Assembly (NCBI GenBank): GCA_050246635.1
Contig: JBFWVR010000002.1
Span: forward strand, 373,938 to 437,937
Direction: 5' to 3'
Origin: Vicinamibacterales bacterium
GTDB taxonomy: Bacteria > Acidobacteriota > Vicinamibacteria > Vicinamibacterales > UBA2999
DNA length: 64,000 nucleotides
Below, piece after piece: positions 10,193 through 25,141 of this stretch (positions are counted from its first letter, which is position 1; each line of letters starts with the position of its first letter). Below the pieces are notes generated by a model. That model searched no databases, was not told where the DNA came from, and saw nothing but the letters and a program-made list of their open reading frames with translations. A program made the position numbers and the translations under genes.

Positions 10193-10947
10193 CGTTTGAC
10201 CAGCATGAGCTGCTCGGTGCGCATGTCCCAGGCCTGGAAGCCGGGCGTGCGCTCGAGGAACTCGACCGTGGCCCTGGGCACGCCCGGGCACTTTCCCGAC
10301 GCGTAGTCGTCCATGACGAAGACGCCACCCGGCACCATGCGGGGCGCGAAGTAGTCGAGGCAGTCCAGCGTCGGCTCGTACAGGTCCGTGTCGATGTGCA
10401 CGAGACGGTAGGCCGACTCGGGCAGGCCGGGCAGCGAGCGCGACACCTCGCCCTTGTGGACCTGCAGCTGCGTGAACGCCGAGAGGTACTCCCGCACGTC
10501 GTCGTAGCTGGTGGCGCCGAACTGCCCGGCGGTGTGGAAGGGATCGTGCTCGGTGATCTTCTCCCCCGGGTGCCCCTCGAACGTGTCGAACACGTGCACG
10601 GGCACCTCCCCGCCGCACATCTCCTGGAAACAGCTCGCGATGAAGAACGCCGAGCCACCGCGGAACGACCCGATCTCGGCGGCAGCGCCCGGCAGGTCGT
10701 GCACGTTGCGAATCGCCTGCCAGAACACATACAGCCGGTCGTAGCCCAGGAGGGTCCGCCCGGACTTGACCACTGGATCGGCCAGCCGGAAGAAATCCTG
10801 GTCGGGCCGGAACGCCAGCGCGTGTTTGCCCTTGCGGTACTTCTCCATCGGCCGGTGGATCCAGAGCGCGGGATCCCGCGGCCGCTTCTCCTTGGCGGGC
10901 GCGGCCGGGGCGGCGTCCACTGCATCCTGCTTGCCGTCTGACGTCAT
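10189..10947 (-). CDS. TylF/MycF-like (macrocin-O-methyltransferase family) sugar O-methyltransferase
   Basis: Part of ORF 10189..11022. Start at ATG 10947 (MTSDGKQ…) with ATGA overlap (tcat 10944-10947). Contains AAEIGSFRGGSA…VHVFDTFEGHP…LVHIDTDLYEPTLDCLDYFAPRMVPGGVFVMDDY, the typical metal-dependent TylF fold signature. Confidence 0.8.
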   Translation of the reverse strand: MTSDGKQDAVDAAPAAPAKEKRPRDPALWIHRPMEKYRKGKHALAFRPDQDFFRLADPVVKSGRTLLGYDRLYVFWQAIRNVHDLPGAAAEIGSFRGGSAFFIASCFQEMCGGEVPVHVFDTFEGHPGEKITEHDPFHTAGQFGATSYDDVREYLSAFTQLQVHKGEVSRSLPGLPESAYRLVHIDTDLYEPTLDCLDYFAPRMVPGGVFVMDDYASGKCPGVPRATVEFLERTPGFQAWDMRTEQLMLVKR

Positions 10948-13268
10948 CGCATCTCCTCGGCGGCCTCCCGGGGCGGGAACGCCGCGGCGTCTTCGACCGG
11001 CACCAGCTGAAGGGGCGCCCACGTGCCCCTCGCGCAGACGGCCGCAATCACGCCGGCCTCCTCGGCCGGCAGGGTCTCGTGGAGGACGGCATAGGCCGGC
11101 GTGCCCTGGGCGGCGGCCAACACGGCCAGATCGCCGTACGGCCCGACGAAGGCGTGCGCCCCTGCGAGTGCACCTGCCTGAGCCTCGAGCGCCTCGGTGC
11201 CATCGAGCCGCACGATCGCACGGCCGCCAGCCACGCGTGTCGCGAGCGCCGCCGGCCCGGCGCCCGATTCGTCCGGCGTGGCCACGACCACGCGGCCGGT
11301 CGCCGCCGGTGCCGCAGGGGCCGGCAGGCGCTCGTGCCGCAGCACCTCCAGCAGGCGGGCCGGCTCGCGGTCACTGTGGATGCGCTGCAGCACGCGGAAG
11401 AACATCAGCGGGTGCAGTGACTGGTAGTCGGTCACGTCCATCATGGCGGCCGCCCGCTGGAGGATGTCCTCATCGAACGGGTACATCACGGCCTGCTTCG
11501 GGTTCTGCTGGCTCTGCGGAACGGTGCGGCTCAGGCCCTCGTCGAACTCGCGGCCACGGAACAGCTCACGGGCATCCAGGTACCGTGGCGCGAGGGCGCC
11601 GTACCAGTCCCGCGCGCCCGCCCGCGAGACCACCGTCAGGCGATCGGGCGCGATGCCGTAGGTCTGCACCGCCCACCGGACGAACGGAATCCAGTACAGC
11701 AACTCCAGCCGGATGTCGTCGAGCCACGGCCCGATGAAGACCGGCCCCGAGGACTCGCGGATTTCCTCCAGTGCGGTGCGGACCGGCCGCAGGGACATGT
11801 TGGTCGCCACCGGACTCGTGTCCGGGGCGGACTGCCCGCCCGCGTGCGCGTATTGGCGGCGCAGCCAGGCACGCAACGCCCAGCGCAACGGCGGATGCCA
11901 GGGCGGCGTGAACCGTCGCGGCGACTTGCGCAGGGCGCCGACCCGCTCGATCTCGTCGGCGAGGATCGGCGAGACCGGCTGCGCGATTCCGCGCGGCCGC
12001 AGGAACTGCTCGGCGAAGGCGCGACTGCGGGCCGACACCTGCGGCTCCCCGGCCAGCAGGGGCGCGAGCTGCCGGTGATGTTCCTCGAAGGACGCGGCCG
12101 GCTGGACGAGGCCGCCGAAGGCCTCGACGAGGTAGCGGAAGTGGATGGTGCCGACCTGCCCCTCGTCGAAGCCCGGAATCAACAGCGTCAGCACGGGCCG
12201 GCCGACGATGGCGGCCTCGAGCATCGCGCTCGTGTTGAGCCCGACGGCGGCGTGCGCGTGATACAGGGAGTCGAAGAGCTCCTGGTCGGCGCCGCGGCTT
12301 GCGTCGAGTGAGAGCGCGACGTTGCCGAGCGACGTGAAGTCGACGGTGGTCCACGACGCTCGGAGGGCGGGATGCGGACGCACCAGCAGGCCACACTCGC
12401 GGACCGCCGCGTCGGGCGACTGGCGCGTGGCTTCGACCCACTGGCGCACGAGCTCCATCTCGTTCGGGCCGGTGAGCTGCGACGATCCCAGGTAGAGGAC
12501 GAACGGCCGCCGCGGATCCAGGCCGTACTGCGCGCAGAACGCGTCGCGGCTCGTCGCCGGCACCCGGGCGAAGAACTCGTCGAAGCGCGCGGCGCCTGCG
12601 ATCGCCACCGCGTCGGGCCGCGCCCCGTGCAGCTCCACGGCCTCGCGGCGCTGCACCTCGTTCCAGACGATGACGCGGTCCGGGTGCACCCGCATCAGGC
12701 CCTTGTTCGTCAGGTTGTCCCAGCTGAAGGGCAGGAACCCGACGGGGATCCCGAGGCGGTGCGCCGCCTTGACGTAGTCCGTCTGGTACGACTCGAAGGT
12801 CACGAGCGGCGTGACGAGCATCAGGTCGGGGTTCTCGTCGCGAACGAACTGCTCGATCGCCGGGTCGCTCGGAATGAGGCGTTCGGCGTAGGCGAGCACA
12901 CCCGCCAGCCGTCGCGCATGTCGCCGGACCCACGCGTGGTTCCGGCAGAACAGCGCGAACCCGGTCGGGGCGATCTCGTAGGCCCGCCGCACCAGGCGGG
13001 TCGCCTGGTCGAACTCCGGCCCGAGGTACCGCAGGTAGTCGCGGGCCCCGCGGAGGCCCTCCACGTACGGACGCCACGCGTCGCTGCGTGTCGTCGGGTT
13101 CTCGCGCGCGGTGACGCCCTTCACCGAGAACTGCCTGGGCAGCGCGAACCGTCCCTTGCGTGGCCGCCCGGTGAGCTGCAGGGTATGGCCCCGGCCGGCC
13201 AGGATCGTGATCGCCTGCTCGAAGTTGCGGATGCGGCTCGTCGCGCCGAGCACGAACAGGATCTTCAT
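10944..13268 (-). CDS. paralog family copy P4 plus an unassigned ~300-aa C-terminal domain
   Basis: Part of ORF 10944..13304. Start at ATG 13268 (MKILFVLGATSRIRNFEQ…) with ATGA overlap (tcat 13265-13268). Motifs: FSWDNLTNKG, VWNEVQRREAVELHG, LLVRPHPA, AVGLNTSAMLEAAIVGRPV, GQVGTIHFRYLV. The C-terminal domain begins …VFIGPWLDDIRLELLYWIPFVRW…. Confidence 0.8.
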   Translation of the reverse strand: MKILFVLGATSRIRNFEQAITILAGRGHTLQLTGRPRKGRFALPRQFSVKGVTARENPTTRSDAWRPYVEGLRGARDYLRYLGPEFDQATRLVRRAYEIAPTGFALFCRNHAWVRRHARRLAGVLAYAERLIPSDPAIEQFVRDENPDLMLVTPLVTFESYQTDYVKAAHRLGIPVGFLPFSWDNLTNKGLMRVHPDRVIVWNEVQRREAVELHGARPDAVAIAGAARFDEFFARVPATSRDAFCAQYGLDPRRPFVLYLGSSQLTGPNEMELVRQWVEATRQSPDAAVRECGLLVRPHPALRASWTTVDFTSLGNVALSLDASRGADQELFDSLYHAHAAVGLNTSAMLEAAIVGRPVLTLLIPGFDEGQVGTIHFRYLVEAFGGLVQPAASFEEHHRQLAPLLAGEPQVSARSRAFAEQFLRPRGIAQPVSPILADEIERVGALRKSPRRFTPPWHPPLRWALRAWLRRQYAHAGGQSAPDTSPVATNMSLRPVRTALEEIRESSGPVFIGPWLDDIRLELLYWIPFVRWAVQTYGIAPDRLTVVSRAGARDWYGALAPRYLDARELFRGREFDEGLSRTVPQSQQNPKQAVMYPFDEDILQRAAAMMDVTDYQSLHPLMFFRVLQRIHSDREPARLLEVLRHERLPAPAAPAATGRVVVATPDESGAGPAALATRVAGGRAIVRLDGTEALEAQAGALAGAHAFVGPYGDLAVLAAAQGTPAYAVLHETLPAEEAGVIAAVCARGTWAPLQLVPVEDAAAFPPREAAEEMR

Positions 13269-14194
13269 GCCCGTCCGCCTTCGGCCGGGCGACGGCGCAC
13301 CCACCCGGGGAACCGCTCGTCCAGCAGCCTGACCGCCGTGCGCAGGTCACGCTCGACCGATGTCCACCACTGCAGCGCTGCCGCCTGGAGTGATCGCGCG
13401 CGGCCGATGGCCGGGCGGCCGCGCCCGCACACCCCGAAATCCCACGCCAGGACGGCGGCGTGCGTCAGGTGCGTCGGCAGGTAGGTCTGGATAGGGGCCG
13501 GCCCGCCGAAGAGCGAGTCCCGCTGCCGCTGTTTGCTGAACCCCTTCCGGATCTCGCGGTACCAGAGCAGCTCCCGCACCTGCCGGAACTCCCCGAGCAG
13601 CGACAGCGCGAGCAGCACCTGGCGGTCGGGCATCAGCACGCGCCGGAACACGCCCGCACGGCCGAGGGCGTTTGCACGGAACAACCCGTAGATCATGTTG
13701 CCGGCCATCATCTGGACGGAGGCCTTGCGGAGGCGCGCGTGCGGATCGTCCAGCCCGCTCGTCTCGAACCCCCTGTTGATCTCCGGCCGGTGGTGCTCGC
13801 GCCGCCGCAGCGCCTGCGGATACGCCAGGACGGCGTCCGGGTGGGCGTCGAGCTCGGCGACGAGCGCCTCCAGCCAGCGGGGATGCCACACGTCGTGATC
13901 GCTGACCCAGGCGAAGTACTCGGCGTCCGGGTGGAGCGCGCGGGCGCGCGCGTAGCACCGCCGCCAGTTGGCAATCATGCCGAGGCGCCGCGGGTTGCGC
14001 TCGTAGGTGAGGCGGGCATCCGACGCAACATACGCCGATGCCACGCGGCCCAGATCGTCGGTCGTCGAGTCGTCCTCGATGACGAGCGCGAAGCGCTCGA
14101 AGGTCTGCGCGAGGAGCGACTCGACCGTCTCCGGCAGCGCGTCCGCCCGGTTGTAGGCGGGCAGGGCGAGCACGACACGAGGCGAGCCGGTCAC
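13265..14194 (-). CDS. GT2-family (GT-A fold) glycosyltransferase
   Basis: 309-aa ORF with a GTG start at 14194 in a GTGA overlap (tcac 14191-14194). VVLALPAYNRADALPETVESLLAQTFERFALVIEDDSTTD is the canonical GT2 N-terminus with an acidic DxD-like motif. Confidence 0.8.
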   Translation of the reverse strand: MTGSPRVVLALPAYNRADALPETVESLLAQTFERFALVIEDDSTTDDLGRVASAYVASDARLTYERNPRRLGMIANWRRCYARARALHPDAEYFAWVSDHDVWHPRWLEALVAELDAHPDAVLAYPQALRRREHHRPEINRGFETSGLDDPHARLRKASVQMMAGNMIYGLFRANALGRAGVFRRVLMPDRQVLLALSLLGEFRQVRELLWYREIRKGFSKQRQRDSLFGGPAPIQTYLPTHLTHAAVLAWDFGVCGRGRPAIGRARSLQAAALQWWTSVERDLRTAVRLLDERFPGWVRRRPAEGGRA

Positions 14195-16815
14195 GCGGCG
14201 CGCCTCCGCCAGCCCAGGCGGTGGACCCGCTCGACCCCGTCACCGGTGCCACGGAAGCCATGCAGGACGGGCATGCCGTCATACCGCGGCACGGGCAGCT
14301 CGTACATCCAGAACCGGCGCGCGAGCACCGCATCGAGCGGCGGCCCGCCGTCCGCAGGCTCGTGGTCGCGCGGCCCCAGCGAATAGAAATAGCGCACGCC
14401 CATCCGGTGCGCGGCCTCGACCGTCGCCTCGCGTGCCGCCGGGGACGTGCGCTCGAGGTACCGCGTGTCGAGCGCCACGTCGAGACCGGCCCCGGCCGGC
14501 GCGTCCGCCAGGGCCGCCTCGGTGGCGAACGCGAAGTCGCAGCCCGACAGGTCACGCCAGAACGCGGCGCCCGGCACCTCGTCATGGAACCGCACGCGCG
14601 CGCCCGGGAAGAGGGTCATGAGGTAGGTCGCCGACGCGATGAGCAGTTCGGGTGCGGCGGTGATCACGTAGGTGGCGTGCGGATACACGGACTTCACGTG
14701 ATAGGCGAGGCCGGCCCAGCGGGCGCCGGGCTGCCAGAACACCGGGGCCGCGCCGGGCTCCGCGAACGGCGTGAGCACGGCCCCACACTCGAGCGCCGAC
14801 AGCACCTCGAAATGCCCGAGCGTCTCGTCGTTGAACAGCCGCTCGCCGTCGTCCGACTCCGCGGCGAACCCGAACCCGCCGAGCAGCGGCGGCTCGGGCA
14901 CGAGGAGCGCCGGAGTGCCGACCTTCAGGAGCCGTCCCTGATCGAGGAAGAAGCGCTTGCGGGCCTCGCCCGCCGCGTCGTACCGGCCCGGGTCTGCGCC
15001 CTCGGCCGCGGCGCCCAGCCGCCGCAGCTCCGACCAGGACGGCGGCGCGGTGTCGCGGAGCGCCGCCAGCACCGCAATCGCCCGCAGCTCGTCCGCGGAC
15101 CGCTCCTGCTCCGGCGCCGACATGCGACACACGTGCTCGCGGGCGATCCGGTAGTTGTCGCACGCGCGCGCGGCCGCCTCGTCCCGCGCGCGGGCTGCCG
15201 CCTCGCTGGCCGCCGCCTTCTGCTCCTGGTCGGCCAGCCGCCGGGCACGGCGTGCCTCACGCGCCTGCCGCGCGCGGTCACGCTCATCCTGGCCGCCGGC
15301 CTTCCGCGCCGCCGGCCTGCCGGCCTTCTTCGCGGGACGGCGTGTGTCACGCGCCAGGCGATCGCGTTCGGCCCGCTCGTACTGCTCGGCAAGCCCGCGC
15401 AGCGCGTTGCGGACGATCGTCGTCCCCCCGCCAGGCCGCGGCGGGGCCGGGCGCGGACCGGCGGCCGTGGCCTCGAGCGCGACGACGAGCCGGGGCGTGG
15501 CGGGCTCGGCCAGCCCAGCCGGCCGCACGAAGGCCTCGACGAAGGCCGATGGGCCGGGGGCCGACGGTGCCAGGACCTCGGCCTCGAGCTGCGCGACGTG
15601 CGTCTCCATGTCGCGCGCCACGGCCAACAGCCCCCCGCTGACACCCGTCAGGTGATGGAAGTGCAGCGTGCCTTCCTGTGTGTCGCGGAACTCCTCGTCC
15701 AGCAGCGTGAACACCCGGCGCCCGACGATGCCACTCTCGATCTGGGCGCTGGTGTTCACGCCCACGACACCGGAGCTGTAGTAGATGGACTCGAAGTAGT
15801 CGGCACGCGACCCGGCGTCGATCGGGTTGCCTCCCACGCGCGGCCAGACACTCACCGCGTCGAGATCACCGAGGTCCACGCCGTCCCAGGCCTCGGTGTT
15901 CTGCGGGTGCGGTCGCACCAGCACGCTCAGCCCGGCCAGCACGGCGGACCGCTCGCGCAGCGCCGTGATCCACCGGCGCACGAACCGCGCCTCGTCCGGT
16001 GCGATGAACCGCGACGAGCACAGATACAGGAGGTACGGCCGGCCGGCGGGCAGGCCCGCGGCGGCGAGGAACGCCTCGCGATCGCGCGCCGGCTGCCACG
16101 TGAACCACTGGTCGTAGGCGGGCGCCCCGGTCACGACAATCCGGTCGGCGGGCACGCCGTGCAGCGTCGTCGCCTCGTGCCGCATCGCCTCGTTCCAGAC
16201 GGCCACGAGATCGAGCGTGTCGTGAATGAGCCCCTTGTTCGTCAGGTTGTCCCAGCTGTACACGCAGAGGGCCGCGGGCACGCCCGCGGCGCGCGCGCTC
16301 CGGACGTAGGTCGACTGCGGACTGCCCGGCTCGACGAGCGGCGTGACCACCAGCAGGTCTGGCGCCTGGTCGCGCACCCAGGCATCCACCTGCGGATCGG
16401 TCGGCAACGCGGCGTCGATCCACCGCAGTCCACCGGCCAGAGCGGCGCGTCCGCGCGGCGACGCCACGCCGGGCACGGCCAGGAGACGCCGGACGAATGG
16501 TGGCGCCGTGCGTTCGGCCCTCGCCCGCAGCTTCGGGGCGGTCGCGTACTCCGGCCCGAGGTACCGCAGGTAGTCGATGCCCCGGCGGACGGCTTCCCCG
16601 AGCAGGCTCCAGCCGTGCGGCCTGCGCGCGGGAACCGGCCCGGTCGTGATCCCCGTGCATGCCTGCGCAAGCCGATCGGCGAGTCCCCCGTCGGCTCCGC
16701 TCTTGTGTGGCGCCGCGGCGACGTGCACCGTGTGGCCACGCGCAGCCAGGAGCCGAAGCGTCGACTCGAAGTTGCGCACGTACACCGTGCTGCGCATGAC
16801 GAAGAGGATCTTCAC
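14191..16815 (-). CDS. paralog family copy P5 plus long charged linker plus unassigned ~320-aa C-terminal domain
   Basis: Part of ORF 14191..17262. Start at GTG 16815 (VKILFVMRSTVYVRNFES…), 16 nt after the upstream stop at 16832. Motifs: YSWDNLTNKG, VWNEAMRHEATTLHGVP, VLVRPHPQN, VVGVNTSAQIESGIVGRRV, TQEGTLHFHHLT. Linker: RAERDRLARDTRRPAKK…RARQAREARRARRLADQEQKAAASEAAARARDEAAAR (nt ~15148-15384). Confidence 0.8.
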   Translation of the reverse strand: MKILFVMRSTVYVRNFESTLRLLAARGHTVHVAAAPHKSGADGGLADRLAQACTGITTGPVPARRPHGWSLLGEAVRRGIDYLRYLGPEYATAPKLRARAERTAPPFVRRLLAVPGVASPRGRAALAGGLRWIDAALPTDPQVDAWVRDQAPDLLVVTPLVEPGSPQSTYVRSARAAGVPAALCVYSWDNLTNKGLIHDTLDLVAVWNEAMRHEATTLHGVPADRIVVTGAPAYDQWFTWQPARDREAFLAAAGLPAGRPYLLYLCSSRFIAPDEARFVRRWITALRERSAVLAGLSVLVRPHPQNTEAWDGVDLGDLDAVSVWPRVGGNPIDAGSRADYFESIYYSSGVVGVNTSAQIESGIVGRRVFTLLDEEFRDTQEGTLHFHHLTGVSGGLLAVARDMETHVAQLEAEVLAPSAPGPSAFVEAFVRPAGLAEPATPRLVVALEATAAGPRPAPPRPGGGTTIVRNALRGLAEQYERAERDRLARDTRRPAKKAGRPAARKAGGQDERDRARQAREARRARRLADQEQKAAASEAAARARDEAAARACDNYRIAREHVCRMSAPEQERSADELRAIAVLAALRDTAPPSWSELRRLGAAAEGADPGRYDAAGEARKRFFLDQGRLLKVGTPALLVPEPPLLGGFGFAAESDDGERLFNDETLGHFEVLSALECGAVLTPFAEPGAAPVFWQPGARWAGLAYHVKSVYPHATYVITAAPELLIASATYLMTLFPGARVRFHDEVPGAAFWRDLSGCDFAFATEAALADAPAGAGLDVALDTRYLERTSPAAREATVEAAHRMGVRYFYSLGPRDHEPADGGPPLDAVLARRFWMYELPVPRYDGMPVLHGFRGTGDGVERVHRLGWRRRAA

Positions 16816-16831: not shown

Positions 16832-19321
16832 TCACCGCGCCACGACCTCGTCGCCCGACGCGAGCTCGAGGTCCATCGGCGCGCCGGGCCGGGTGAAGAG
16901 GCCGTACCACACCCGGTACTCGCCTGCCTTGTTCCGGACCCGAACCCTGGACTGCAGGTGCAGGCCGTGCCCCTCGAGCGCGCCGGTGACGGCATCCGAG
17001 AGCTCGGTGCTGATCTCGATGAGCACCGAGCGAAGGCCGGGCGACGCCAGGACCCGCGCGGCACCGCCCAGCACGGCGAACTCCCCGCCGTCGACGTCGA
17101 GCTTGATGTGGTTCGGCAGCGGCAGCGCGGCCTGCTCGACCAGGTCGTCGAGCCGGAACGTGAGGACCGGTTGCGGGTACACCGTCGGCGCCTCGCCAGG
17201 CGCGCCGGCGCCAAGCGTGTGCCGGGCGCCGCCGGGCGCCAGGCCGATGAGGTTGAGCACACTCGCGGCGTTCGCGTCCGCGAGCGCGACGGGCAGCGGC
17301 GTGATCCGCGACGCCAGGTCGTTGAGCACCACGTTCGCGCAGAGGGCGTTCACGTTGGGATAACTCGGCTCGAACGCGACGACCCGCGCGCCGCCGGCGG
17401 GGTTGGCCGCCGCGACCAGCGAGTAGGCCCCGACGTTCGCCCCGATGTCGTAGAAGACCTCGTCGGGCCGGAACTGCCGGATCCAGGCGACCGTCCAGGG
17501 CTCCTTCGCGCAGGCGCGCAGGCGGACCCGCTCGGCCTTCGACGTGACCCGCATCCGGATCTCCGCATCCGGGAAGTCGAGCCGCTCGGCGTTGGCCCGC
17601 TGCAGCTCGAACCAGAGCTCGGATGGAATGCCGTCGACGATCCGCTCGAAGAACTGGACACGCTCCGCGTGCGACAGGGCCCCGTAGCTGCCCGCGAGCT
17701 CGGTCAGCCGCTCCTCGCGGCTGGCGGCCGCCTTGCGCGCCTCGCGGGCACGCCGCTCGTCCTCCTGCCGGGTCTTCTCGGCGAGCTTCTTCGCGATGCG
17801 CTCCTGCTTGGCCGCCTCCCGCCGCGCCCGGGCGGCATCGCGTTCCGCCTTCGCGCGCTCGGCCGCGTTCGCCTGCGCCTCGAGCTGCGCCGCCCGGCGC
17901 CGCAGCGCCGGCCGCACCGCCGTGGCCCAGGCCGGGGGCCGGGCGCCCGGCGCCCTGGGCCGGGCCGCCAGGCGCTCGAGCGCGTCGACCAGGCGAGGCG
18001 TGGCGGGCTCGCCGCGGCCGAAGGGCCTGACGAACGCATCCACGAACCGGCCACACCGATCGGCGCCAGCACCGGGCGAGGCGAGCTCGGCGTCGAGCTG
18101 CGACAGGTGCTCCTCGAACGACGCGGCCACCTGCACCAGGCCGCCGTTGGCCTGGCGCAGGTGCTCGAAGTGGATCGTGCCCTCCTGCGTGTCGCGGAAC
18201 TCCGGGGCGAGCAGCGTGAACACCGGCCGGCCGACAATGGCGCACTCGATCTCGGCTGTCGTGTTCACGCCCACCGCGGCGGCACAGTGGTAGATCGACT
18301 CGAAGTAGTCGCCGCGCGTCGCGGCGTCGACGGGCGCGGCGCCGGCTGCCGGGAAGATCGTCACGTCGCCGAGGCCCGAGCGGTCGAAGCCCTGCCACTG
18401 CTTCGCGTTCTGCGGGTGCGGCCGCACGAGCACGCCGGCGCGCCGGAGCCGCTCGGACGAGGAGGCCCGCAACTGCTCCACCCACCGGCGGACGAAGGCC
18501 GCCTCGTCGGGGGCGACGAACTTCGACGAACAGAGGTACAGCAGGTAGGGATCCGCCGACGCCAGGCCCGCGCGCGCGCAGAAGGCCTCGCGGGTACCCG
18601 CGGGCTGCCAGTCGAACCAGTGGTCGAAGGGCTGGGCGCCGGTGACGACCACGCGGTCCGCGGGAATGCCGTGGAGCCGGACGGCCTCGTCACGCATCGC
18701 GTCGTTCCAGACGGTCACCAGGTCCACCGGGTCGTGGATGAGTCCCTTGTTGGTCAGGTTGTCCCAGCTGGCGACGCACAGCACGGCCGGCACACCGGCC
18801 GCGCGAGCACTGCGCACGTAGTCGGCCTGCGGCGATCCCGGCTCCATCAGGGGCGTGACGAGCACGAGGTCGGGCCGGAGCTCGCGGACGTGCGCGTCGA
18901 TGGCCGGGTCGGTCGGGATGGCCCGGTCGGCGGCCTCGAGGATCGGCTTCAGCGCCGCACGCGCCAGCGGGCCGCGGCGCGTCCAGGCCAGGTAGCTGGC
19001 CGGGATCTCCCGCTCGACGCGCCGTCGCAGCTTCGGCGCCCGTGCGTACATCGGCGTGAGGTAGCGGAGGTAGTCGAGCACCAGCCGCACCTCCTGCCCG
19101 AGCATGCCCCACCCGTCCTCGCGCAGCGGCACGATGCCCTGCGAGAACGTCGGGTACTGCGCCGACAGCTGTCGCCCGATGTCGGTCGAGTCGAGCAGCC
19201 AGTGCGGCATGCGCGCCTGGAAGCCCACGTGCACGTGGTGCCCGCGGTCGCAGAGCAGGCGGATCGCGGACTCGAAGTTCCGGACGTAGCCGGAATGCCG
19301 CATGACGAAGAGGACTCTCAT
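16832..19321 (-). CDS. paralog family copy P6 fused via a long charged linker to a C-terminal FkbM-family methyltransferase domain
   Basis: 829-aa ORF. Motifs: ASWDNLTNKG, VWNDAMRDEAVRLHGIP, VLVRPHPQN, AVGVNTTAEIECAIVGRPV, TQEGTIHFEHLR. Linker nt ~17687-17914: AERAKAERDAARARREAAKQERIAKKLAEKTRQEDERRAREARKAAASREERL. FkbM part: VFYDIGANVGAYSL…VVAFEP…IKLDVDGGEFAVLGG. Confidence 0.85.
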   Translation of the reverse strand: MRVLFVMRHSGYVRNFESAIRLLCDRGHHVHVGFQARMPHWLLDSTDIGRQLSAQYPTFSQGIVPLREDGWGMLGQEVRLVLDYLRYLTPMYARAPKLRRRVEREIPASYLAWTRRGPLARAALKPILEAADRAIPTDPAIDAHVRELRPDLVLVTPLMEPGSPQADYVRSARAAGVPAVLCVASWDNLTNKGLIHDPVDLVTVWNDAMRDEAVRLHGIPADRVVVTGAQPFDHWFDWQPAGTREAFCARAGLASADPYLLYLCSSKFVAPDEAAFVRRWVEQLRASSSERLRRAGVLVRPHPQNAKQWQGFDRSGLGDVTIFPAAGAAPVDAATRGDYFESIYHCAAAVGVNTTAEIECAIVGRPVFTLLAPEFRDTQEGTIHFEHLRQANGGLVQVAASFEEHLSQLDAELASPGAGADRCGRFVDAFVRPFGRGEPATPRLVDALERLAARPRAPGARPPAWATAVRPALRRRAAQLEAQANAAERAKAERDAARARREAAKQERIAKKLAEKTRQEDERRAREARKAAASREERLTELAGSYGALSHAERVQFFERIVDGIPSELWFELQRANAERLDFPDAEIRMRVTSKAERVRLRACAKEPWTVAWIRQFRPDEVFYDIGANVGAYSLVAAANPAGGARVVAFEPSYPNVNALCANVVLNDLASRITPLPVALADANAASVLNLIGLAPGGARHTLGAGAPGEAPTVYPQPVLTFRLDDLVEQAALPLPNHIKLDVDGGEFAVLGGAARVLASPGLRSVLIEISTELSDAVTGALEGHGLHLQSRVRVRNKAGEYRVWYGLFTRPGAPMDLELASGDEVVAR

Positions 19322-19938
19322 CGCGCGGAGGCGGCGGGCAGCGGCCGTTCGGTGGCCACGTCGGTCCGCAGCAGCAGGAGCTTGCGCCGCGGCACGCCCT
19401 GGCGCACGAGCTCCTGGACGACCTTCTTGGGTTTGTGCAGGGCCGCCACGATGAGCGTGTCGAAGGCGACGCTCGCGTGGTCGGCAATCGGGACAACAGG
19501 CCGCCCGAAGAAGCGCTCACCGGCCTCGGCGTCGAAGACCACGACCGGCTCGAGGCCGAGCTCGTGGAGGGCCAGCATCGCGAGCTCGGCGGCCTCGCCG
19601 GTGCCGTAGATGGCCACGCGCTTCTGGCGGCCGACGCGGCCGTCGAGGTTCTGCCGCACGTGGCGGCGCGCGTCGCGGTAGAGATCCAGCGAGTACTGCA
19701 TGAACTCCATCGTCAGGCGCGCCTTGCGCGTGAGCCCGCGCGGCGTGATCAGGTAGATCAGGCGGTTCGGGCGGACCGAGACGCTCTTGATGTAGCCCTT
19801 GCGGATCAGGCGCTTCAGGTACAGGTTCGTCAGCCCGAGCGCGATGCCCAGGCGCGCCGCGAGCGTCCGCTGCGTCAGCGCGGAGTCCTGCTCGAGCGCG
19901 TCGAGCAGCTGGAGATCGCGTATCGACTCGAGATCCAT
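19318..19938 (-). CDS. winged-helix (MarR/EPS-associated type) transcriptional regulator with C-terminal Rossmann/CoA-binding-like domain
   Basis: C-terminal 206 aa of ORF 19318..20787, starting at ATG 19938 (MDLESIRDLQLLDALEQDSALTQRTLAARLGIALGLTNLYLKRLIRKGYI…). Followed by RVAIYGTGEAAELAMLALHELGLEPVVVFD. Its stop overlaps the downstream start (tcat 19318-19321). Confidence 0.75.
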   Translation of the reverse strand: MDLESIRDLQLLDALEQDSALTQRTLAARLGIALGLTNLYLKRLIRKGYIKSVSVRPNRLIYLITPRGLTRKARLTMEFMQYSLDLYRDARRHVRQNLDGRVGRQKRVAIYGTGEAAELAMLALHELGLEPVVVFDAEAGERFFGRPVVPIADHASVAFDTLIVAALHKPKKVVQELVRQGVPRRKLLLLRTDVATERPLPAASAR

Positions 19939-19952
19939 GCGGGCGCGCTCCC

Positions 19953-20846
19953 TCACAGCTGGTCGACCGACGAGCCTTCCATCCGGTCGAAGTAGATGAG
20001 GCCGCCGGTGAGCACGACGAGCATGACCCCCGTGCTGATGCCGAGGGCCATGGGGTTGAGCTCCGAGCCGGCGCCGATCGTGGCCCACTTGAAGGCCTCG
20101 ATGAAGCCGGCCATCGGGTTGAGGTAGACCAGGTGGCGGTAGTTCTCGGGCACCATCGACACCGGGTAGATCACCGGCGTCAGGTAGAACCAGAAGCGCA
20201 TGACGTAGCGGATGCCCATCTGCACGTCGCGGGCCCGCGTCTGCAGCACGCAGGTCCAGAGGCCGATCGAGATCGCGCAGGTGATCGCCAGCAGCAGGGC
20301 CACCGGGGCCATCAGCAGGCCGAGGTCCATCCGGAGGTACCAGCGGTGGTGGGCGATCAGGTAGAAGGTGATCCCCAGCAGGTACAGGGTGCAGTAGATG
20401 AAGAGGTAGACCATCGCCGGCCCCAGGCCGGACACCGGGATGACGAGGCGCGGGAAGTACACCTTCCGCACCAGGTCCCGGCTGCTGTTCATGCTCTTCG
20501 TGATGAAGATCACGCAGCGCTCGAACACGTTCCAGGTCACCGCGCCGGTGAGGAAGAACAGCAGGTAGGGCACCTCGCCGGAGTCGACCCCGACGACGCT
20601 GCCGAAGATCATGCCGCTCAGGAGGATCGGGAAGAGCGGGCGGGCGAAGAGCCAGAACTTGCCGAGCGCCGTGCCCTGGTACATCCGCTTCACGCTGCGC
20701 GACGCGAGGAACCAGGTGATGCGCCGGTACCGGATGAACTCCTTCAGGCGCGGGATCAACCCGGCGCGCTGCGGCTCGATGGTCCACGTGTCCTTGCGCC
20801 GGTCGCCGGCGCCGGCCAGCGGGAGGGTCACGGCTGTCTCAGGCAT
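19953..20846 (-). CDS. wzm: ABC-2 type polysaccharide exporter permease
   Basis: 297-aa ORF with multiple hydrophobic spans. Typical Wzm/TagG/KpsM features are present (…RRITWFLASRSVKRMYQGTALGKFWLFARPL…VYFPRLVIPVS…YLNPMAGFIEAFKW…). The start overlaps the wzt stop by 8 nt. Confidence 0.9.
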   Translation of the reverse strand: MPETAVTLPLAGAGDRRKDTWTIEPQRAGLIPRLKEFIRYRRITWFLASRSVKRMYQGTALGKFWLFARPLFPILLSGMIFGSVVGVDSGEVPYLLFFLTGAVTWNVFERCVIFITKSMNSSRDLVRKVYFPRLVIPVSGLGPAMVYLFIYCTLYLLGITFYLIAHHRWYLRMDLGLLMAPVALLLAITCAISIGLWTCVLQTRARDVQMGIRYVMRFWFYLTPVIYPVSMVPENYRHLVYLNPMAGFIEAFKWATIGAGSELNPMALGISTGVMLVVLTGGLIYFDRMEGSSVDQL

Positions 20847-22095
20847 TCTGAATCTCCGTCGGCGTCAGGAGCTTCCAGTCCAGGCGCGGGGCGAGCAGGG
20901 CCCCCTTGAGGAGCTTGCGCCGCCCCTCCACCTGTTCGGCGGTCGAGTAGCTCATGAACGACAGCGCCTTGTAGATGATGAGCGAGGACTCCTTGCCCTC
21001 GTGCTCGACGATGAGGAAGGCGTTCACGCTGTAGACGATCTCGGTGAGGAAGTGCGCCGGGATGCGGACCCAGGCCTCGTAGCCCCCGGCCTCGTCGATC
21101 GCGTGGGCCTCGGGCTCCATGCTGCGGAAGATCAGCGTCGACCGGTAGTTGACGTCGACCCCGGCCTTGATCGTGATGTTCGGCTTCCGCACGACGAAGC
21201 GGATGCGCACGAAGACGTCCTCCGATTGCGGCGCCGCGCCAATCTCCTTGCCGGCGGCGGTGACGAGGCGCGCGCCGATGAGCTCCGCGTAGCGGTTCTC
21301 ATGCCGGCCCTTCTCGCCGGCCGTGGCCTCGTTCCGCGCCCACGCCGCGTTCTGGTACTCCAGCACCACGTCGTCCGGCTCGCCGATCTTCACGACCTGC
21401 CCGGCGTTGATCCACATCACCTGGTCGCAGACGCGCGAGATGGCCTCCATGTCGTGCGAGACGAACAGGACCGTCAGGCCGTCGTGCGCGAGCTCCGCGA
21501 CGCGCTCGAGACAGCGCTCCTGGAACGCGAGATCACCCACGGCCAGGATCTCGTCCGCGAGCAGGATGTCGGGCTGCATGTTGATCGCGACCGAGAAGGC
21601 CAGCCGCAGGTACATGCCGCTCGAGAAGAACCGCAGCTCCGTCTCGACGAACTCCCCGATCTCCGCGAACTCGACGATCTTGTCGAAGTTCCGGTCGACG
21701 TCGGCCTTCGGGATCCCGTACAGCGCGGCGTTCAGGTAGACGTTCTCGCGCGCCGACGCGTCGGGGTTGAAGCCCGCGCCGAGCTCCAGCAGCGAGACCA
21801 CGCGGCCGACGCCGTGCACGCGTCCCTCGCTGGGCGGCGTCACGCGGGCGATGACCTTGAGCAGCGTGCTCTTGCCGGCCCCGTTGGCCCCGATGATGCC
21901 CAGCACGCGTCCCGGCTCCGCCCCGAAGGAGACGTTGCGCAGCGCCCAGAACTCCCGCCCCCCCGGCCCCGCCTCGCCCTTCAGGAAGCTGGTGACCGAT
22001 CGCCACGACAGCTTCGGCAGCAACGCGTTCGCGTTCTTGTCCGACTTGCTGATGTGGTAGCACTTGCCGAGATTCTCGACGGTCAGGTTGTTCAT
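20839..22095 (-). CDS. wzt: ABC exporter ATP-binding protein with C-terminal Wzt-type glycan-binding domain
   Basis: 418-aa ORF. Walker A GANGAGKST, signature FSSGMYLRLAF, Walker B ILLADEILAVGD, H-loop VSHD. An extra ~160-aa C-terminal beta-rich domain follows (…VFVRIRFVVRKPNITIKAGVDVNY…WVRIPAHFLTEIVYSVNAFLIV…). Confidence 0.9.
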   Translation of the reverse strand: MNNLTVENLGKCYHISKSDKNANALLPKLSWRSVTSFLKGEAGPGGREFWALRNVSFGAEPGRVLGIIGANGAGKSTLLKVIARVTPPSEGRVHGVGRVVSLLELGAGFNPDASARENVYLNAALYGIPKADVDRNFDKIVEFAEIGEFVETELRFFSSGMYLRLAFSVAINMQPDILLADEILAVGDLAFQERCLERVAELAHDGLTVLFVSHDMEAISRVCDQVMWINAGQVVKIGEPDDVVLEYQNAAWARNEATAGEKGRHENRYAELIGARLVTAAGKEIGAAPQSEDVFVRIRFVVRKPNITIKAGVDVNYRSTLIFRSMEPEAHAIDEAGGYEAWVRIPAHFLTEIVYSVNAFLIVEHEGKESSLIIYKALSFMSYSTAEQVEGRRKLLKGALLAPRLDWKLLTPTEIQNA

Positions 22096-22108: not shown

Positions 22109-25100
22109 TCACTTCACCCCGCGGCCGCGCACGAACGTGCCGACGTGGTACCGCGCCTGCCGGGGAATGCGGGTGATCTGCCTGGCGAGCCGGCGCAGGC
22201 GCTCGCCGCCCGTGCGGCCCGCGTGCCCGGCGCCCTTGCGCAGGTGATGGAGCGATTGCCGCGCCGACTTGCGCGCCGCCGCGAGCCGCGCGTCCCCGGC
22301 CATGCGCCCCCGCACCGCGACCCCCCCTGCCAGCAGGAGCACCACCGGCAGGAGCGCGAGGCCCGCGGCACGCGCCGCAAGGGAACGCGCCCGCCCACGG
22401 CCACGCAGGCTGATGAGGCGGGTGGCCAGCGCATCGACGTCGCCGCCCGGCACCGGCGGCCAGAGTGCCTCGCCGGCATACCCGGTGAGCCGCGCGACCT
22501 CGCCGGCCGGGTCGGCCAGGGCCTCGCGGAGTTCGTCCAAGAGCGCGCTCGCGGACGCGCCGTGGCGCAGCCCGCCGCCGTTGGCACGGAGCAGCCACGT
22601 GAGCGGCTTCGCCACCGGGGCGGCAGGACTCGCGGGCGGCAACGCGAGAATCGCGGGCCGGCCGGCGGCCACCGCGCCGAGCAGCGCCGTGACGTGTCCG
22701 CCGACGACGGCCCTCGCGCCAGCCACCGATGCGTAGAGGAGCGCGTCGTCGCCCCGGCCGTCGGCCGGGTAGCTGGTGGGCCACAGCACCACGCCGTCGC
22801 GGTCCGCGATACCCGAGGCGTCCCACTCGGCGGTGCGCCCGGGCGCCGGCCGGATCACCACCGCCAGATCCCGCAGCCGGCTGTCGCCGCTCGTGCGCAG
22901 CGCGTCAACGAAGCTGTCGGCCAGCCGGACCTCCTGTCGAGTCGCGGCAAACGTGCCAGGTGACGCCACGTACAGGACGTAGTCACGTTCCGCATCGAGC
23001 CCGCACTGGGTTCGCAGGTCCGCGACGGCCTCCGGGGACACCCCGCGGAACGATTCCAGCGCGGTGGCGCCACTGACAACAACGGCGGCCTCGTCGACCA
23101 GTCCCGCCGCCGCGAGCGCGTGCCGATCGGCGGGGCTCCAGACCGACACCAGCGTGGGTCGGCCAAGCAGGAGGCCGTGATTGACGCCGTGCTCCCCACC
23201 GGATGCCAGGGCCGCTGCCGGCACGCCAAGCTGTCGGGCAGCCTTGAGGAGATCGATCTGGCCGGCGCTCGCCTCGGCCGCCGTCACCAGGTCCATCGCG
23301 GGCAGGACGAGCAACACGTCCGGCCGCTCGGTGTCCATCAACCCGCGGGCGCCAGCCGGGACGGGGACCGCGTGCTCGAGCAGGCCGAGCCGCCGCACGA
23401 GCCGCAACGCGCCATCGACGCCGGCAGCAGCGGTGTCCTGCAAGCCCACCGGCAGCAGGTGCCGGCGCACGCGGGTGTTCCAGTCGCCGTCCGCCACCGG
23501 CTCCTCCACGGCCGGCACGACCGGCACCAGCGTGGCAAGCCCTCCGAGCGCGGCACCGACCTCACCCCAGACACCGGTCGCGGCCGGGACGGCGCCGCGG
23601 ATCCGCGTGCCGTCCGCGGCGATCTCGAGTTGCTCGGACGGCCGACCGCGCCGCTCGCGCCCCGGCGTGTAGGTCACCGCGAGCCCGCACCCGTGTTCCC
23701 GGAGCGCGGCCAGCAGCGGCGCGTGGTGTGCGAGCGCCGCGGCTGACGGCGTGGCGACGAGCACGCGTGGAGACGCAGCCGCCCCCATCGTACTTGCGGG
23801 CCGCCTCCCCGTTGGCCACACCGCAGAGAGGATGGCCAGCGCCGCCCGTGCCACCCGATCTTCCCTCGGCGCGGGTCGCGCCGCGGGGTATCGGGCGACT
23901 TCCTGAATCAGCCGCTTGGCGGCGGCCAGCTCCGGTGCGGGCACCGGGCCGTGCGGACGGACGTACGCCCTCGCGGACCGAAGCGCCAAGGTCGACACGT
24001 CACCGCGGAACACGGCGGCCAGGTGCCGCATCGACTCGCCAATGGTGGTGGCCATGAGCGGCCAGCCGCGTCCCCGGCCGTGCAGGGCCTCGAACCGGGT
24101 GAGCTCCTCCCCCGTGTCGCTGCCGGGCAGGGCCAGGGCAATCACCGGCACCCGCACGGCCGCGCCGTCCAGCGCCGCGGCCAACCCGGTCGTGACGATG
24201 GCGTCCGCATGCTGGCAGGCTGCGGCCCACCGGGCGTCGCCGTGCCGGGCGCCTCGGGCATCCATCACGGCAACCGGCCCGAGCGCGGGCGGCAAGGCCA
24301 TCGACGCCGCGTCCGGGATCAGCACGGCGGCGCCGGCAACGTGCGCGTCTTCGTGCGTGCGGAGAACCCGCAGCCACTCCGCGACCCACGCCGTATTGGC
24401 GGCCACTGCGTCCTCCACCGACAGGACGATGAGCCTGGAATCGACGGGCAACCCCAGCGCGGCGAGCACCTCCGCGCGCGGGGGCGGATCCGCGAAGAGG
24501 TGGTTGAAGTCGGGCGCGCCGAGCACACTCACGCGTTGCGGAGGCATGCCGTGCAGGTCGATGGCTTCCCGCCGCTGTTCGCGGTTCCACACGCTGATCG
24601 CGTCGGGCCGTTCGTGCAGGTGCGCGCCGCAGGCGAGGTCGTCCCACCGGGCGGTGAGCGCCAGCGTGCTGGCACCGCGACGGTGGGCGGCGCGCGCATA
24701 ATCGACCTGCGCGCTTCCGTGCTCGAAGGGCGAGGCAAGCACCACGACGTCGGGCCGGTGCCGGTCGAGCAGCTCTGTCACGGCCGGGTCGACGGGCAAC
24801 GCGCGTTCCAGGCGGGTCAAGGTGCGGAGAGCCAGGTCGCGCGCCAGTGACAGTCCCCGGGCATCGACCGCCCGATCACGGAGTCGCAGCTGGTCGATCG
24901 CGGACCGCACCGCCGCGGCGGCCCGGGTCCTGCGTGGCGAGGCCGGCGGTGGCGCGTACCCGAGCGAGATGCGAGACGTGGTCCGCGCGAGGGCGCCAAT
25001 CGCGGTGAGCTCCTCATTGGCCGCGACCCGCTCGGCGACGACGTGCACGCGGTCGCCGCGGGCCGCGAGGCCGCGCAGCAGCCCCAGGTGCGGCGCCGCC

Positions 25101-25141
25101 GCCCCCAGGCTCGACACCACGAATACGACGCGCTCCGGCAT
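22109..25141 (-). CDS. motif-degenerate tandem double-domain member of the paralog family (D1) with predicted C-terminal membrane anchor
   Basis: 1010-aa ORF. Homology to the family is visible (RPDVVVLASPFEHGSAQVDYARAAHRRG…ARWDDLACGAHLHERPDAISVWNREQRREAIDLHGMPPQRVSVLGAPDF) but SWDNLT-KG, RPHP and QEGT-HF are not conserved. C-terminal hydrophobic stretch AAGLALLPVVLLLAGGVAV is followed by a basic tail. Confidence 0.7.
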   Translation of the reverse strand: MPERVVFVVSSLGAAAPHLGLLRGLAARGDRVHVVAERVAANEELTAIGALARTTSRISLGYAPPPASPRRTRAAAAVRSAIDQLRLRDRAVDARGLSLARDLALRTLTRLERALPVDPAVTELLDRHRPDVVVLASPFEHGSAQVDYARAAHRRGASTLALTARWDDLACGAHLHERPDAISVWNREQRREAIDLHGMPPQRVSVLGAPDFNHLFADPPPRAEVLAALGLPVDSRLIVLSVEDAVAANTAWVAEWLRVLRTHEDAHVAGAAVLIPDAASMALPPALGPVAVMDARGARHGDARWAAACQHADAIVTTGLAAALDGAAVRVPVIALALPGSDTGEELTRFEALHGRGRGWPLMATTIGESMRHLAAVFRGDVSTLALRSARAYVRPHGPVPAPELAAAKRLIQEVARYPAARPAPREDRVARAALAILSAVWPTGRRPASTMGAAASPRVLVATPSAAALAHHAPLLAALREHGCGLAVTYTPGRERRGRPSEQLEIAADGTRIRGAVPAATGVWGEVGAALGGLATLVPVVPAVEEPVADGDWNTRVRRHLLPVGLQDTAAAGVDGALRLVRRLGLLEHAVPVPAGARGLMDTERPDVLLVLPAMDLVTAAEASAGQIDLLKAARQLGVPAAALASGGEHGVNHGLLLGRPTLVSVWSPADRHALAAAGLVDEAAVVVSGATALESFRGVSPEAVADLRTQCGLDAERDYVLYVASPGTFAATRQEVRLADSFVDALRTSGDSRLRDLAVVIRPAPGRTAEWDASGIADRDGVVLWPTSYPADGRGDDALLYASVAGARAVVGGHVTALLGAVAAGRPAILALPPASPAAPVAKPLTWLLRANGGGLRHGASASALLDELREALADPAGEVARLTGYAGEALWPPVPGGDVDALATRLISLRGRGRARSLAARAAGLALLPVVLLLAGGVAVRGRMAGDARLAAARKSARQSLHHLRKGAGHAGRTGGERLRRLARQITRIPRQARYHVGTFVRGRGVK

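Follow-up and report, generated by a model that had tools for sequence, protein, structure and literature searches.

Putative bifunctional glycosyltransferase/FkbM methyltransferase fusions with linkers of unlike nature in a Wzm/Wzt surface-glycan locus of a Vicinamibacterales bacterium

What controls the length of glycans that are exported by ATP-binding cassette (ABC) transporters has, to our knowledge, been worked out for only a few enterobacterial systems, all of which have canonical coiled-coil rulers. The question is raised again by a 64,000-nucleotide stretch of DNA from a Vicinamibacterales bacterium of the Acidobacteriota (contig JBFWVR010000002.1, positions 373,938 to 437,937, referred to here as the window), which encodes two proteins, fusion A and fusion B, that each join an N-terminal domain of predicted glycosyltransferase B (GT-B) fold through a linker to a C-terminal FkbM-type methyltransferase. 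The original prediction for this locus took the pair for polymerase-ruler-terminator enzymes whose linker lengths would determine chain length. Judged from protein families and structure models, A and B are likely to be bifunctional transferase/methyltransferase enzymes of a Wzm/Wzt surface-glycan assembly line, and the question becomes what the linker between the two modules does. The parts of the two proteins are located as follows.

16832-19321, minus strand: fusion A, 829 amino acids (aa), from its open reading frame (ORF), translation, AlphaFold2 model and homologues.
17963-19321, minus strand: GT-B-fold domain of fusion A, aa 1-453, predicted by AlphaFold2 and Foldseek.
17678-17926, minus strand: predicted linker helix of fusion A, aa 466-548, a single helix by DSSP.
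17594-17671, minus strand: predicted two-helix hairpin of fusion A, aa 551-576 (helices at 551-564 and 567-576).
16892-17590, minus strand: FkbM methyltransferase of fusion A, aa 578-810 (PF05050, E 7.5e-12; TIGR01444, E 4.3e-22).
2691-4925, minus strand: fusion B, 744 aa, from its ORF, translation, AlphaFold2 model and homologues.
3411-3560, minus strand: linker of fusion B, predicted by AlphaFold2 as a helix at aa 456-488 and then disordered at aa 489-505.
2700-3410, minus strand: FkbM methyltransferase of fusion B, aa 506-742 (PF05050, E 8.7e-13; TIGR01444, E 7.6e-26).

Both ORFs are exactly as annotated, with a third-position GC of 0.92-0.98 that is unbroken across both linkers, and the same architecture recurs in the full-length homologues, 119 for A and 91 for B. 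Because the coding signal is continuous and the architecture is common to these hundreds of homologues, neither fusion is an artefact, and a frameshift or assembly error as their origin was ruled out. The methyltransferase assignments exceed the family cut-offs comfortably (PF05050, 46.1 bits for A and 49.2 for B with a cut-off of 22.7; TIGR01444, 79.1 and 91.3 bits with a cut-off of 37.7), and the S-adenosylmethionine motif DIGANVG is intact in A, with D625, G627, N629 and G631 invariant in 69 sequences, as are D556, G558 and G562 of the corresponding motif in the 50 sequences for B. AlphaFold2 models built with these 69 and 50 homologues reached a mean predicted local distance difference test (pLDDT) score of 86.9 for A and 92.1 for B. 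In the model of A, the GT-B-like α/β domain (1-453) is followed by a Pro-rich loop, the linker helix (466-548), the hairpin (551-576), in which R554 and P566 are nearly invariant, and the methyltransferase (578-810); the model of B has no hairpin and proceeds from the N-terminal domain (1-446) through a helix (456-488) and a stretch of pLDDT <50 (490-504) to the methyltransferase (506-742). Family scores, models and homologues thus bear out the earlier claim that a canonical paralog domain, a linker and a C-terminal FkbM domain are combined twice in this locus; public annotation calls such proteins only "FkbM family methyltransferase" or "hypothetical."

Compared with one another, A and B share 35% identity over 477 aa of the N-terminal domain (E 6e-73) and 47% over 219 aa of the FkbM domain (E 3e-48), and their linkers do not align. 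Within the window, neither FkbM domain has a closer relative than the other one (47% identity, the stand-alone FkbM genes being at 31-37%), whereas the GT-B domain of A is nearer to unfused paralogs (57% to g14191 and 48% to g5951) than to that of B. This discordance suggests either that modules were shuffled or that the methyltransferase was lost following a duplication.

The N-terminal domains of A and B have no Pfam match above threshold, and they owe their assignment to their models. In Foldseek searches of the PDB, the A domain aligns with UDP-N-acetylglucosamine (UDP-GlcNAc) 2-epimerases at a template-modelling (TM) score of ~0.7 and with GT1 and GT4 enzymes at 0.5-0.6 (E down to 2.6e-12), and both models have a probability of 1.00 to 2-epimerases, MshA, WaaG and GT1 enzymes, with E values to 1e-11 and 1e-12, all of these likenesses being at just 10-16% identity. 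With pLDDT mostly >85 in aa 1-453 of A and aa 1-446 of B, both N-terminal domains are modeled as having the GT-B fold. WbbB, KpsC and sialyltransferases were not among the top 50 Foldseek hits of the N-domain models, and PDB sequence and profile searches with fusion A, its 69-sequence profile and a 15-paralog profile found nothing credible for the N-domain and only class I methyltransferases for the C-terminus. Fusion A has the motifs SWDNLxxKG (185-193), SS (265-266), HP (302-303) and NTTAExE (353-359), within which S185-W-D-N-L, K192-G193, S265-S266, H302-P303, N353-T354 and E359 are invariant in its homologues; the catalytic-looking SWDN, SS, HP and NT[ST]AExE are invariant across the 69 homologues of A and the 50 of B. 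Weak matches to Glyco_transf_4 occur in 5 of 15 paralog copies (best E 5e-6), the A domain reaching 13.7 bits where the cut-off is 28.5, and weak matches to Glyphos_transf (TagF) in two (E ~0.01). We did not adopt the HP motif and a weak BFO_1060 match as signs of a 3-deoxy-D-manno-oct-2-ulosonic acid (Kdo) or nonulosonic-acid transferase, for which scores are far under the cut-off and no matching sugar-synthesis genes were seen, and a 2-epimerase was judged unlikely despite the top fold matches, given 15 modular copies of which several are in tandem within one protein.

The domain, ~450 aa long, recurs to an extent that makes it, as an uncurated and massively amplified family, a more striking feature of the window than the fusions themselves. 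All-against-all BLAST found it in 12 window proteins, from which 15 copies in 64 kb were aligned, in keeping with the earlier description of a canonical paralog domain; their genes are listed here.

939-2684, 2691-4925, 5951-9175, 10944-13253, 14191-16815 and 16832-19321: first six GT-B paralog genes.
22109-25141, 33286-34758, 38664-41756, 43726-45213, 46391-48694 and 48895-50766: second six GT-B paralog genes.

Five copies lack both the HP histidine (replaced by AP, AS or SP) and SWDN, all of them in the two-domain proteins 22109-25141, 38664-41756 and 46391-48694 (all minus strand), and from their sequences these may have a non-catalytic scaffolding role. Searched against 1.84 billion proteins, a profile of the 15 copies matched at least 9,050 cluster representatives (clustered at 50% identity) at E ≤ 1e-3; at the stricter limit of E ≤ 1e-30 there were 2,218, and a single protein has up to four matched stretches. 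A genome scan added 75 loci in Acidobacteriota, Actinomycetota (Solirubrobacterales, Thermoleophilaceae and Gaiellaceae), Chloroflexota, Planctomycetota, Verrucomicrobiota, Fibrobacteria, Desulfobacterales and others; together with two loci fetched separately, these 77 related loci have up to 7 copies per 22 kb, and 36 of them have Wzm within 10 kb. The C-terminal domains of ~300 aa in the 874-aa paralog (14191-15135, minus strand) and the 769-aa paralog (10944-11810, minus strand) matched no family. They recur in 31 and 41 of the 77 loci, respectively, often in several copies, and are two more uncharacterised modules of the same toolkit.

It is in the linkers that A and B part company. The original prediction placed them at nucleotides that correspond to aa 470-545 of A and aa 468-506 of B, and described both as A/R/E/K-rich and heptad-like but clearly different in length. 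The difference in length is seen in the AlphaFold2 models (helix 466-548 in A; helix 456-488 and coil 489-505 in B), and the composition holds for A. In B, a helical extension of ~22 residues gives way to a disordered Pro/Ala/Gly stretch. The predicted helix of A is 83 residues long, with pLDDT of 85-96 to about aa 510 falling to 53-54 at aa 521-540; it starts with a conserved W-x-x-L-V-R-x-x-L-x-R-R segment, and its longest Pro/Gly-free stretch (aa 472-543, 72 aa) is 86% A/R/E/K/Q/D and 8% large hydrophobic residues. In the best heptad register, L/I/V/M/F/Y/W fill 14% of the a/d positions, compared with 80% in GCN4, and the helix is not a canonical coiled coil; what remains of the heptad-like character is an alanine stripe, a periodicity of 3.3-3.5 residues in alanine plus hydrophobics that is seen both in the column profile of 15 sequences and in the window protein (p ~0.02 against shuffles for the latter). 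The linker is ~53% charged and 29% alanine, presumably richer in alanine and less charged than canonical single α-helices (SAHs), and its density of i/i+4 opposite-charge pairs is about one-third that of a myosin-10-like reference sequence, so that with both charge and pair density below this reference we do not claim the label of a canonical SAH for it. Tandem repeats in the DNA of the A linker are limited to trivial GC-rich micro-repeats, with no 21-nt unit.

Comparison across homologs gives a divided answer on whether linker length is maintained. Among the 119 homologues of A the distance from anchor to anchor is 131 ± 12 aa. Fifty of them have no proline in the central variable segment, and 33 have three or more there. 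The proline-free set has central lengths of 58 (22 sequences), 55 (14), 51 (4), 65 (3) and 62 aa (2), and these steps of one or two helical turns hint that helical phase is preserved, though the sequences are phylogenetically non-independent. Grouped by hairpin sequence, the homologues form three main subgroups, with 30 sequences that fit none. The "FIEL" subgroup (n = 46; central segment 56.6 ± 6.7 aa; 34 proline-free and none with three or more prolines) keeps, as far as its sequences indicate, both linker length and helicity. The "GEL" subgroup (n = 37) has central segments of 42.7 ± 7.8 aa, mostly with proline, and in the "WFEL" subgroup (n = 6), to which the window protein itself belongs, central segments vary from 55 to 108 aa and have at least three prolines in four of six members (four of the five homologues), so that just two are proline-free, the window protein and the sequence nearest to it (77% core identity). 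The B linker is variable as well, ranging from 26 to 106 aa in 91 homologues (mean 49, sd 10) and being rich in Pro/Ser/Thr/Ala/Gly after a short basic stretch; by sequence and model it is a flexible, unconserved tether. Other paralogs, too, have a long charged stretch free of Pro and Gly after their GT-B domain (59 aa in g14191, 72 aa in g939 and, as part of a C-terminal tail, 48 aa in g48895), and in g939 and g48895 there is no domain downstream. Since similar helices occur on paralogs without a second domain, the charged helix is a trait of the paralog family rather than of methyltransferase fusions, and most GT-B paralogs end in basic, amphipathic-looking tails.

The setting of the fusions is one of ABC-transporter-dependent export, as the original prediction had it and as family and structure matches bear out. 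The gene layout, which was read from third-position GC profiling and ORF coordinates across the window (72% G+C), has nearly all genes from 130 to 34758 tightly packed on the minus strand, and those around the fusions are as follows, in the order of transcription.

22109-25141, minus strand: two-domain GT-B paralog, transcribed ahead of wzt.
20839-22095, minus strand: Wzt ABC-transporter ATPase (nucleotide-binding domain, aa 44-250; Wzt_C-like domain, aa 251-418, nucleotides 20842-21345).
19953-20846, minus strand: Wzm ABC-2 permease (PF01061, 8.7e-17).
19318-19956, minus strand: 212-aa winged-helix protein (HTH_24, MarR-EPS-like; PF13412, 2.7e-11).
14191-16815, minus strand: 874-aa GT-B paralog g14191, 57% identical to A, with a C-terminal domain of ~300 aa without a family.
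10944-13253, minus strand: 769-aa GT-B paralog, with a C-terminal domain of ~300 aa without a family.
939-2684, minus strand: 581-aa GT-B paralog g939, with a 72-aa charged stretch at its C-terminus.
130-930, minus strand: formyltransferase (family match).

Fusion A stands between the winged-helix gene and g14191, which is followed by a GT2 gene ahead of the 769-aa paralog; then come TylF and FkbM genes, a further two-domain paralog, a class I methyltransferase and fusion B, which precedes the 581-aa paralog. Overlaps of 8 nt between wzt and wzm and of 4 nt each between wzm and the helix-turn-helix (HTH) gene for the winged-helix protein and between that gene and fusion A make wzt-wzm-HTH-fusion A a translationally coupled chain. 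Around A homologues in related metagenome-assembled genomes the block is found again, made up of Wzt (422-429 aa), Wzm, in many cases a separate FkbM gene, the fusion itself, a protein that joins GT-B to an unknown domain, GT2 and TylF, with a g14191 homologue directly downstream of A homologues in other loci, while the locus of the closest A homologue has no transporter within 10 kb upstream. GT-B/FkbM fusions are in wzt-wzm operons of other phyla as well, with B-type examples in three related loci (L029, L030 and L045), and in another (L038) a fusion with a 73-aa linker is located between wzt and wzm. In one related genome (L001) a pair of A-type fusions is separated by 4 kb, and their linkers measure 137 and 114 aa from anchor to anchor.

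For the nucleotide-binding domain of Wzt there is a match to Aquifex Wzt (6AMX/8DKU) at 1e-59, and its best family scores are to TagH models. The 168-aa C-terminal extension of Wzt has a single family match, to Wzt_C (PF14524), at 13 bits (E 0.1, cut-off 30.4) over model positions 4-127 of 143, and Wzt_C is the top family for 13 of 13 orthologous Wzt C-termini from related loci (best E 2.8e-6); the sole match of a Wzt C-terminal profile in the PDB was the Aquifex Wzt carbohydrate-binding domain 8DKY, at an E of 0.49 that is not significant alone. The earlier statement that this Wzt is of the cap-reading type is reasonable in view of a divergent Wzt_C-like domain that is consistent across all 13 orthologues.

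The window encodes ~16 methyltransferase domains. Eight are counted as FkbM type (two fused and six stand-alone), of which Pfam confirmed seven, namely the two fused ones and stand-alone copies at 9200, 34973, 45281, 57726 and 58495, and the GT2 protein at 53818 has a weak class I methyltransferase match at its N-terminus. The others assigned by family match are these.

10189 and 37099: TylF-type methyltransferases.
27820: CmcI-type rhamnosyl O-methyltransferase.
30028: sugar C-methyltransferase.
4938, 25650, 52844 and 59336: other class I methyltransferases.

By sequence, this set suggests an unusually heavily methylated glycan. Besides the GT-B copies there are five glycosyltransferases (four GT2 and one GT61), and 15 GT-B modules plus these five suggest many distinct linkages. 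The sugar-nucleotide genes are also assigned by family matches.

25650-32030, 56635-57630, 60100-61257 and 130-930, minus strand: sugar-nucleotide genes.

They include a glucose-1-phosphate cytidylyltransferase that would form CDP-glucose (330 bits, cut-off 300), a GDP-mannose 4,6-dehydratase and a WecE-type aminotransferase, both above cut-off, and also a 3,5-epimerase, a formyltransferase and dehydratases/reductases. Their sequences point to a CDP-glucose-derived C-methylated 6-deoxyhexose (from cytidylyltransferase, 4,6-dehydratase, C-methyltransferase, 3,5-epimerase and reductase) and to a GDP-6-deoxyhexose (Gmd) and a 4-amino-4,6-dideoxyhexose (WecE-type aminotransferase), the last of which may be N-formylated by the formyltransferase. 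Genes for nonulosonic-acid synthesis were not seen in the window, nor were any for CDP-glycerol or CDP-ribitol synthesis among the window genes scanned.

Taken with this context, the function we favor for both fusions is one in which the N-terminal GT-B module probably adds one sugar to a lipid-linked chain, and the tethered FkbM module, to go by its family membership, probably uses S-adenosylmethionine to O-methylate a sugar of this chain. The fusion would keep both activities together, by a tether of different physical nature in the two proteins. In A this would be a long Ala/charge-rich helix, ~12 nm in length if fully helical (83 residues × 1.5 Å), and more like a stable single α-helix or an EAAAK-type spacer than a coiled coil; in B it would be short and flexible. 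Several considerations weigh against this assignment. The nearest folds of the N-domain in Foldseek are 2-epimerases rather than transferases, and the domain, at 26 bits against a cut-off of 200 for NF046086 (BFO_1060), has no sequence-detectable relative of known function. All 75 scanned loci come from uncultured organisms, the AlphaFold2 models are of monomers and are silent on oligomerisation of the A helix, and, the window having ~16 methyltransferase domains, it may be internal residues that the fusions methylate.

Whether fusion A also ends the chain is a separate matter. The Wzt_C-like domain on Wzt means that the pathway probably uses a terminal signal, and A is the best candidate for it in the window because it is operon-coupled to wzt-wzm and has a long helix that could place the methyltransferase ~12 nm from the transferase, as in the geometry of known rulers (PMC11231755). 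That A makes a terminal methyl cap is for these reasons a tenable but tentative proposal, that its linker sets chain length is doubtful, and that the two fusions give two modal lengths is very improbable, with B as a ruler being excluded by a linker that is predicted to be disordered (pLDDT <50) and is unconserved in its 91 homologues, an outcome that the original prediction had itself named as refuting the idea. The full model of that prediction, with the GT-B module as a polymerase or part of one, a coiled-coil ruler, an FkbM terminator whose methyl cap is read by Wzt, and two fusions for two modal lengths or polymers, is one that we consider unlikely. The Wzt_C-like domain, the translational coupling of A to wzt-wzm with synteny kept elsewhere, the 83-residue helix between its domains, the clustering of proline-free linkers at 51, 55, 58, 62 and 65 aa, and the alanine and hydrophobic periodicity of 3.3-3.5 residues are all as this model would have them, but the a/d positions are poor in large hydrophobics (14%, against 80% in GCN4), A's own subgroup has at least three prolines in four of six members and lengths of 55-108 aa, the disordered B linker ranges over 26-106 aa, similar charged helices end g939 and g48895 without a terminator, neither WbdD nor WbbB chains came up as similar sequences in PDB searches, and the length clustering may stem from a few clades rather than independent events. 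Moreover, B-type fusions adjoin wzt-wzm in other genomes despite a disordered linker, which means that fusions can be associated with wzt-wzm in the absence of a rigid spacer. The roles proposed for the two catalytic modules were not supported either, in that nothing marks the N-domain out as the polymerase and not as one of 15 single-addition modules, and nothing singles out these two fusions as terminal cappers among ~16 methyltransferase domains. The ruler-terminator idea thus retains the Wzt_C-like domain, the coupling and the long A helix, set against a helix that is non-canonical and unconserved in its own subgroup and a B linker that is disordered. It is quite possible that each fusion adds one sugar of a complex and heavily O-methylated glycan, whether built of repeats or not, and methylates that residue or its neighbor, with termination and any control of length lying elsewhere and the linker serving only to keep the two activities on one chain. 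The number of methyltransferase domains, the 15 GT-B modules and five other glycosyltransferases, the poor conservation of the linker in B and in A's own subgroup, and the two A-type fusions 4 kb apart in one related genome would all fit with internal modification, whereas the Wzt_C-like domain implies some terminal signal, an enzyme that methylates its own just-added residue has no obvious need for an 83-residue helix, and a subgroup of 46 homologues keeps a long, mostly proline-free linker.

Two further explanations concern the helix and the N-domain individually. The charged helices may bind each other or the membrane and assemble the GT-B paralogs into a multi-enzyme complex, a somewhat unlikely suggestion that is compatible with the other readings and does not exclude them. 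Pro/Gly-free A/R/E/K/Q/D-rich stretches are present in four paralogs, two of which have nothing downstream (g939, 72 aa; g48895, 48 aa), most paralogs have basic, amphipathic-looking tails, the W-x-x-L-V-R-x-x-L-x-R-R segment at the start of the A helix is conserved, and polymerase-terminator complexes exist in known systems (PMC11231755), though the scarcity of large hydrophobics argues against stable helix-helix packing. The N-domain might alternatively be another GT-B-fold enzyme, such as a TagF-like phosphotransferase of alditol- or sugar-phosphate or a 2-epimerase-like enzyme, which we regard as improbable. UDP-GlcNAc 2-epimerases are the top Foldseek matches for both models, Glyphos_transf (TagF) is matched weakly by 2 of 15 paralogs (E ~0.01), TagH models give the best scores for the nucleotide-binding domain of Wzt, and the HP motif and motif order are like those of TagB/TagF-like and sialyltransferase-like enzymes (HP and D/E-D/E-G motifs; PMC5420450). 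Opposed to this, the GT4 N-terminal domain is matched by 5 of 15 paralogs at a best E of 5e-6, fifteen tandem or modular copies suit transferases and not epimerases, CDP-glycerol/CDP-ribitol synthesis genes were absent among the window genes scanned, and the Foldseek likenesses are at just 10-16% identity.

If fusion A does terminate chains, the logic of terminator-controlled export would extend to the Acidobacteria, to another methyltransferase family and to a helical spacer that is not a coiled coil, and a monomeric single-helix ruler, if true, would differ physically from the rulers known so far. Independently of this, the locus reveals a large transferase-like GT-B family that has no Pfam or NCBIfam model, occurs in many phyla and reaches 15 copies in a locus. 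In uncultured bacteria that are abundant in soil, its members probably build a surface polymer with heavy methylation. The most far-reaching version, that this undescribed family is the modular core of ABC-dependent glycan assembly in soil bacteria, and that A-type fusions set length by a monomeric Ala/charge-rich single helix and make a methyl cap that is read by a divergent Wzt_C, is a speculation that we think is probably wrong in at least some part.

Other genes of the neighborhood bear on the locus more loosely. The winged-helix protein matches TIGR04176 at 62.7 bits, under the cut-off of 88, and its C-terminal part of ~150 aa has no family match; its gene is directly upstream of an A homologue in one other locus and near wzt/wzm in further related loci. 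The glycan cluster has genes for a fatty-acid desaturase, a radical SAM enzyme and a UbiA prenyltransferase at its flanks, the pair of radical SAM and UbiA genes also adjoins the closest homologous locus (P0002), and these genes may provide a linked lipid or carrier modification. A 681-aa protein with a weak YfhO match (E 6.6e-6, under cut-off) may be a membrane glycosyltransferase-like component of the cluster.

50769-52814, minus strand: 681-aa protein with the weak YfhO match.
55152-56045, minus strand: fatty-acid desaturase.
61468-62982, plus strand: radical SAM enzyme.
63006-63965, plus strand: UbiA prenyltransferase.

Several known systems resemble parts of this arrangement. The RfbT model of Pfam matches both fusions under its cut-off (E 0.011 and 8.4e-4). 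The Vibrio cholerae O1 enzyme RfbT/WbeT (Ogawa) is FkbM-related and methylates the non-reducing terminal sugar of an ABC-exported O antigen, but it is a stand-alone protein without a glycosyltransferase module or spacer and is not known to determine length, and its likeness to the fusions is sub-threshold. The GT-B domain of the WbbB terminator also has an HP motif. The WbbB terminator is a Kdo transferase, unlike the fusions, which carry a methyltransferase, and WbbB chains were absent both from the results of the PDB sequence and profile searches and from the 50 best Foldseek matches. In Klebsiella pneumoniae O12, WbbB is composed of a GT99 β-Kdo terminator, a coiled coil and a GT1+GT25 polymerase, with a canonical coiled coil that has been found experimentally to be a ruler (PMC11231755), and it exemplifies the single-protein polymerase-ruler-terminator concept that the original prediction invoked. 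The WbdD proteins of Escherichia coli O9a and K. pneumoniae O3 are methyl-based terminators that a helical spacer keeps at a distance from the membrane, and their cap is read by the Wzt C-terminal domain (PMC3482155); they differ from the fusions in being stand-alone enzymes with a kinase, a canonical oligomeric coiled coil and, at the C-terminus, a membrane helix by which a separate polymerase is recruited, and PDB searches with fusion A and its profile found no sequence similarity to them. The only named family touched by the sequence of the N-domain is that of the Tannerella forsythia nonulosonic-acid transferases (BFO_1060, NF046086), which are TagB-like GT-B enzymes with HP and acidic motifs (PMC5420450); both have the HP and acidic motif in the N-terminal half, but the matches, which extend over ~70-130 residues only, amount to 16-30 bits where 200 would be required.

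Fusion A fails the canonical coiled-coil test and for that reason is not filed with WbdD and WbbB. Its linker is closer to the SAH or "ER/K" helices, which are charge-rich monomeric connectors of a rigid or semi-rigid kind that have often been taken for coiled coils (PMC5812594, PMC5347031, PMC4571873), in being long, charge-rich and very poor in hydrophobics and in its prediction as a single uninterrupted helix. The nearest precedent in architecture is K. pneumoniae O7 ORF6, in which a methyltransferase-kinase, a coiled coil and two GT2 modules form one polypeptide (PMC11231755), so that glycosyltransferase and methyltransferase share a single chain with a long helical region between them, encoded at a wzm/wzt locus whose export would depend on a terminal signal. 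In the fusions, however, the order is reversed, with the glycosyltransferase N-terminal and the methyltransferase C-terminal, an unclassified GT-B takes the place of GT2, the FkbM module has no kinase, the helix of fusion A lacks canonical heptads, and no sequence homology to ORF6 was detected. The joining of a glycosyltransferase to a terminating methyltransferase by a helical region is thus already known from O7 ORF6 and from the logic of WbbB and WbdD, and the present case departs from these in how its domains are ordered, in the families of both catalytic modules, in the kind of helix and in phylum.

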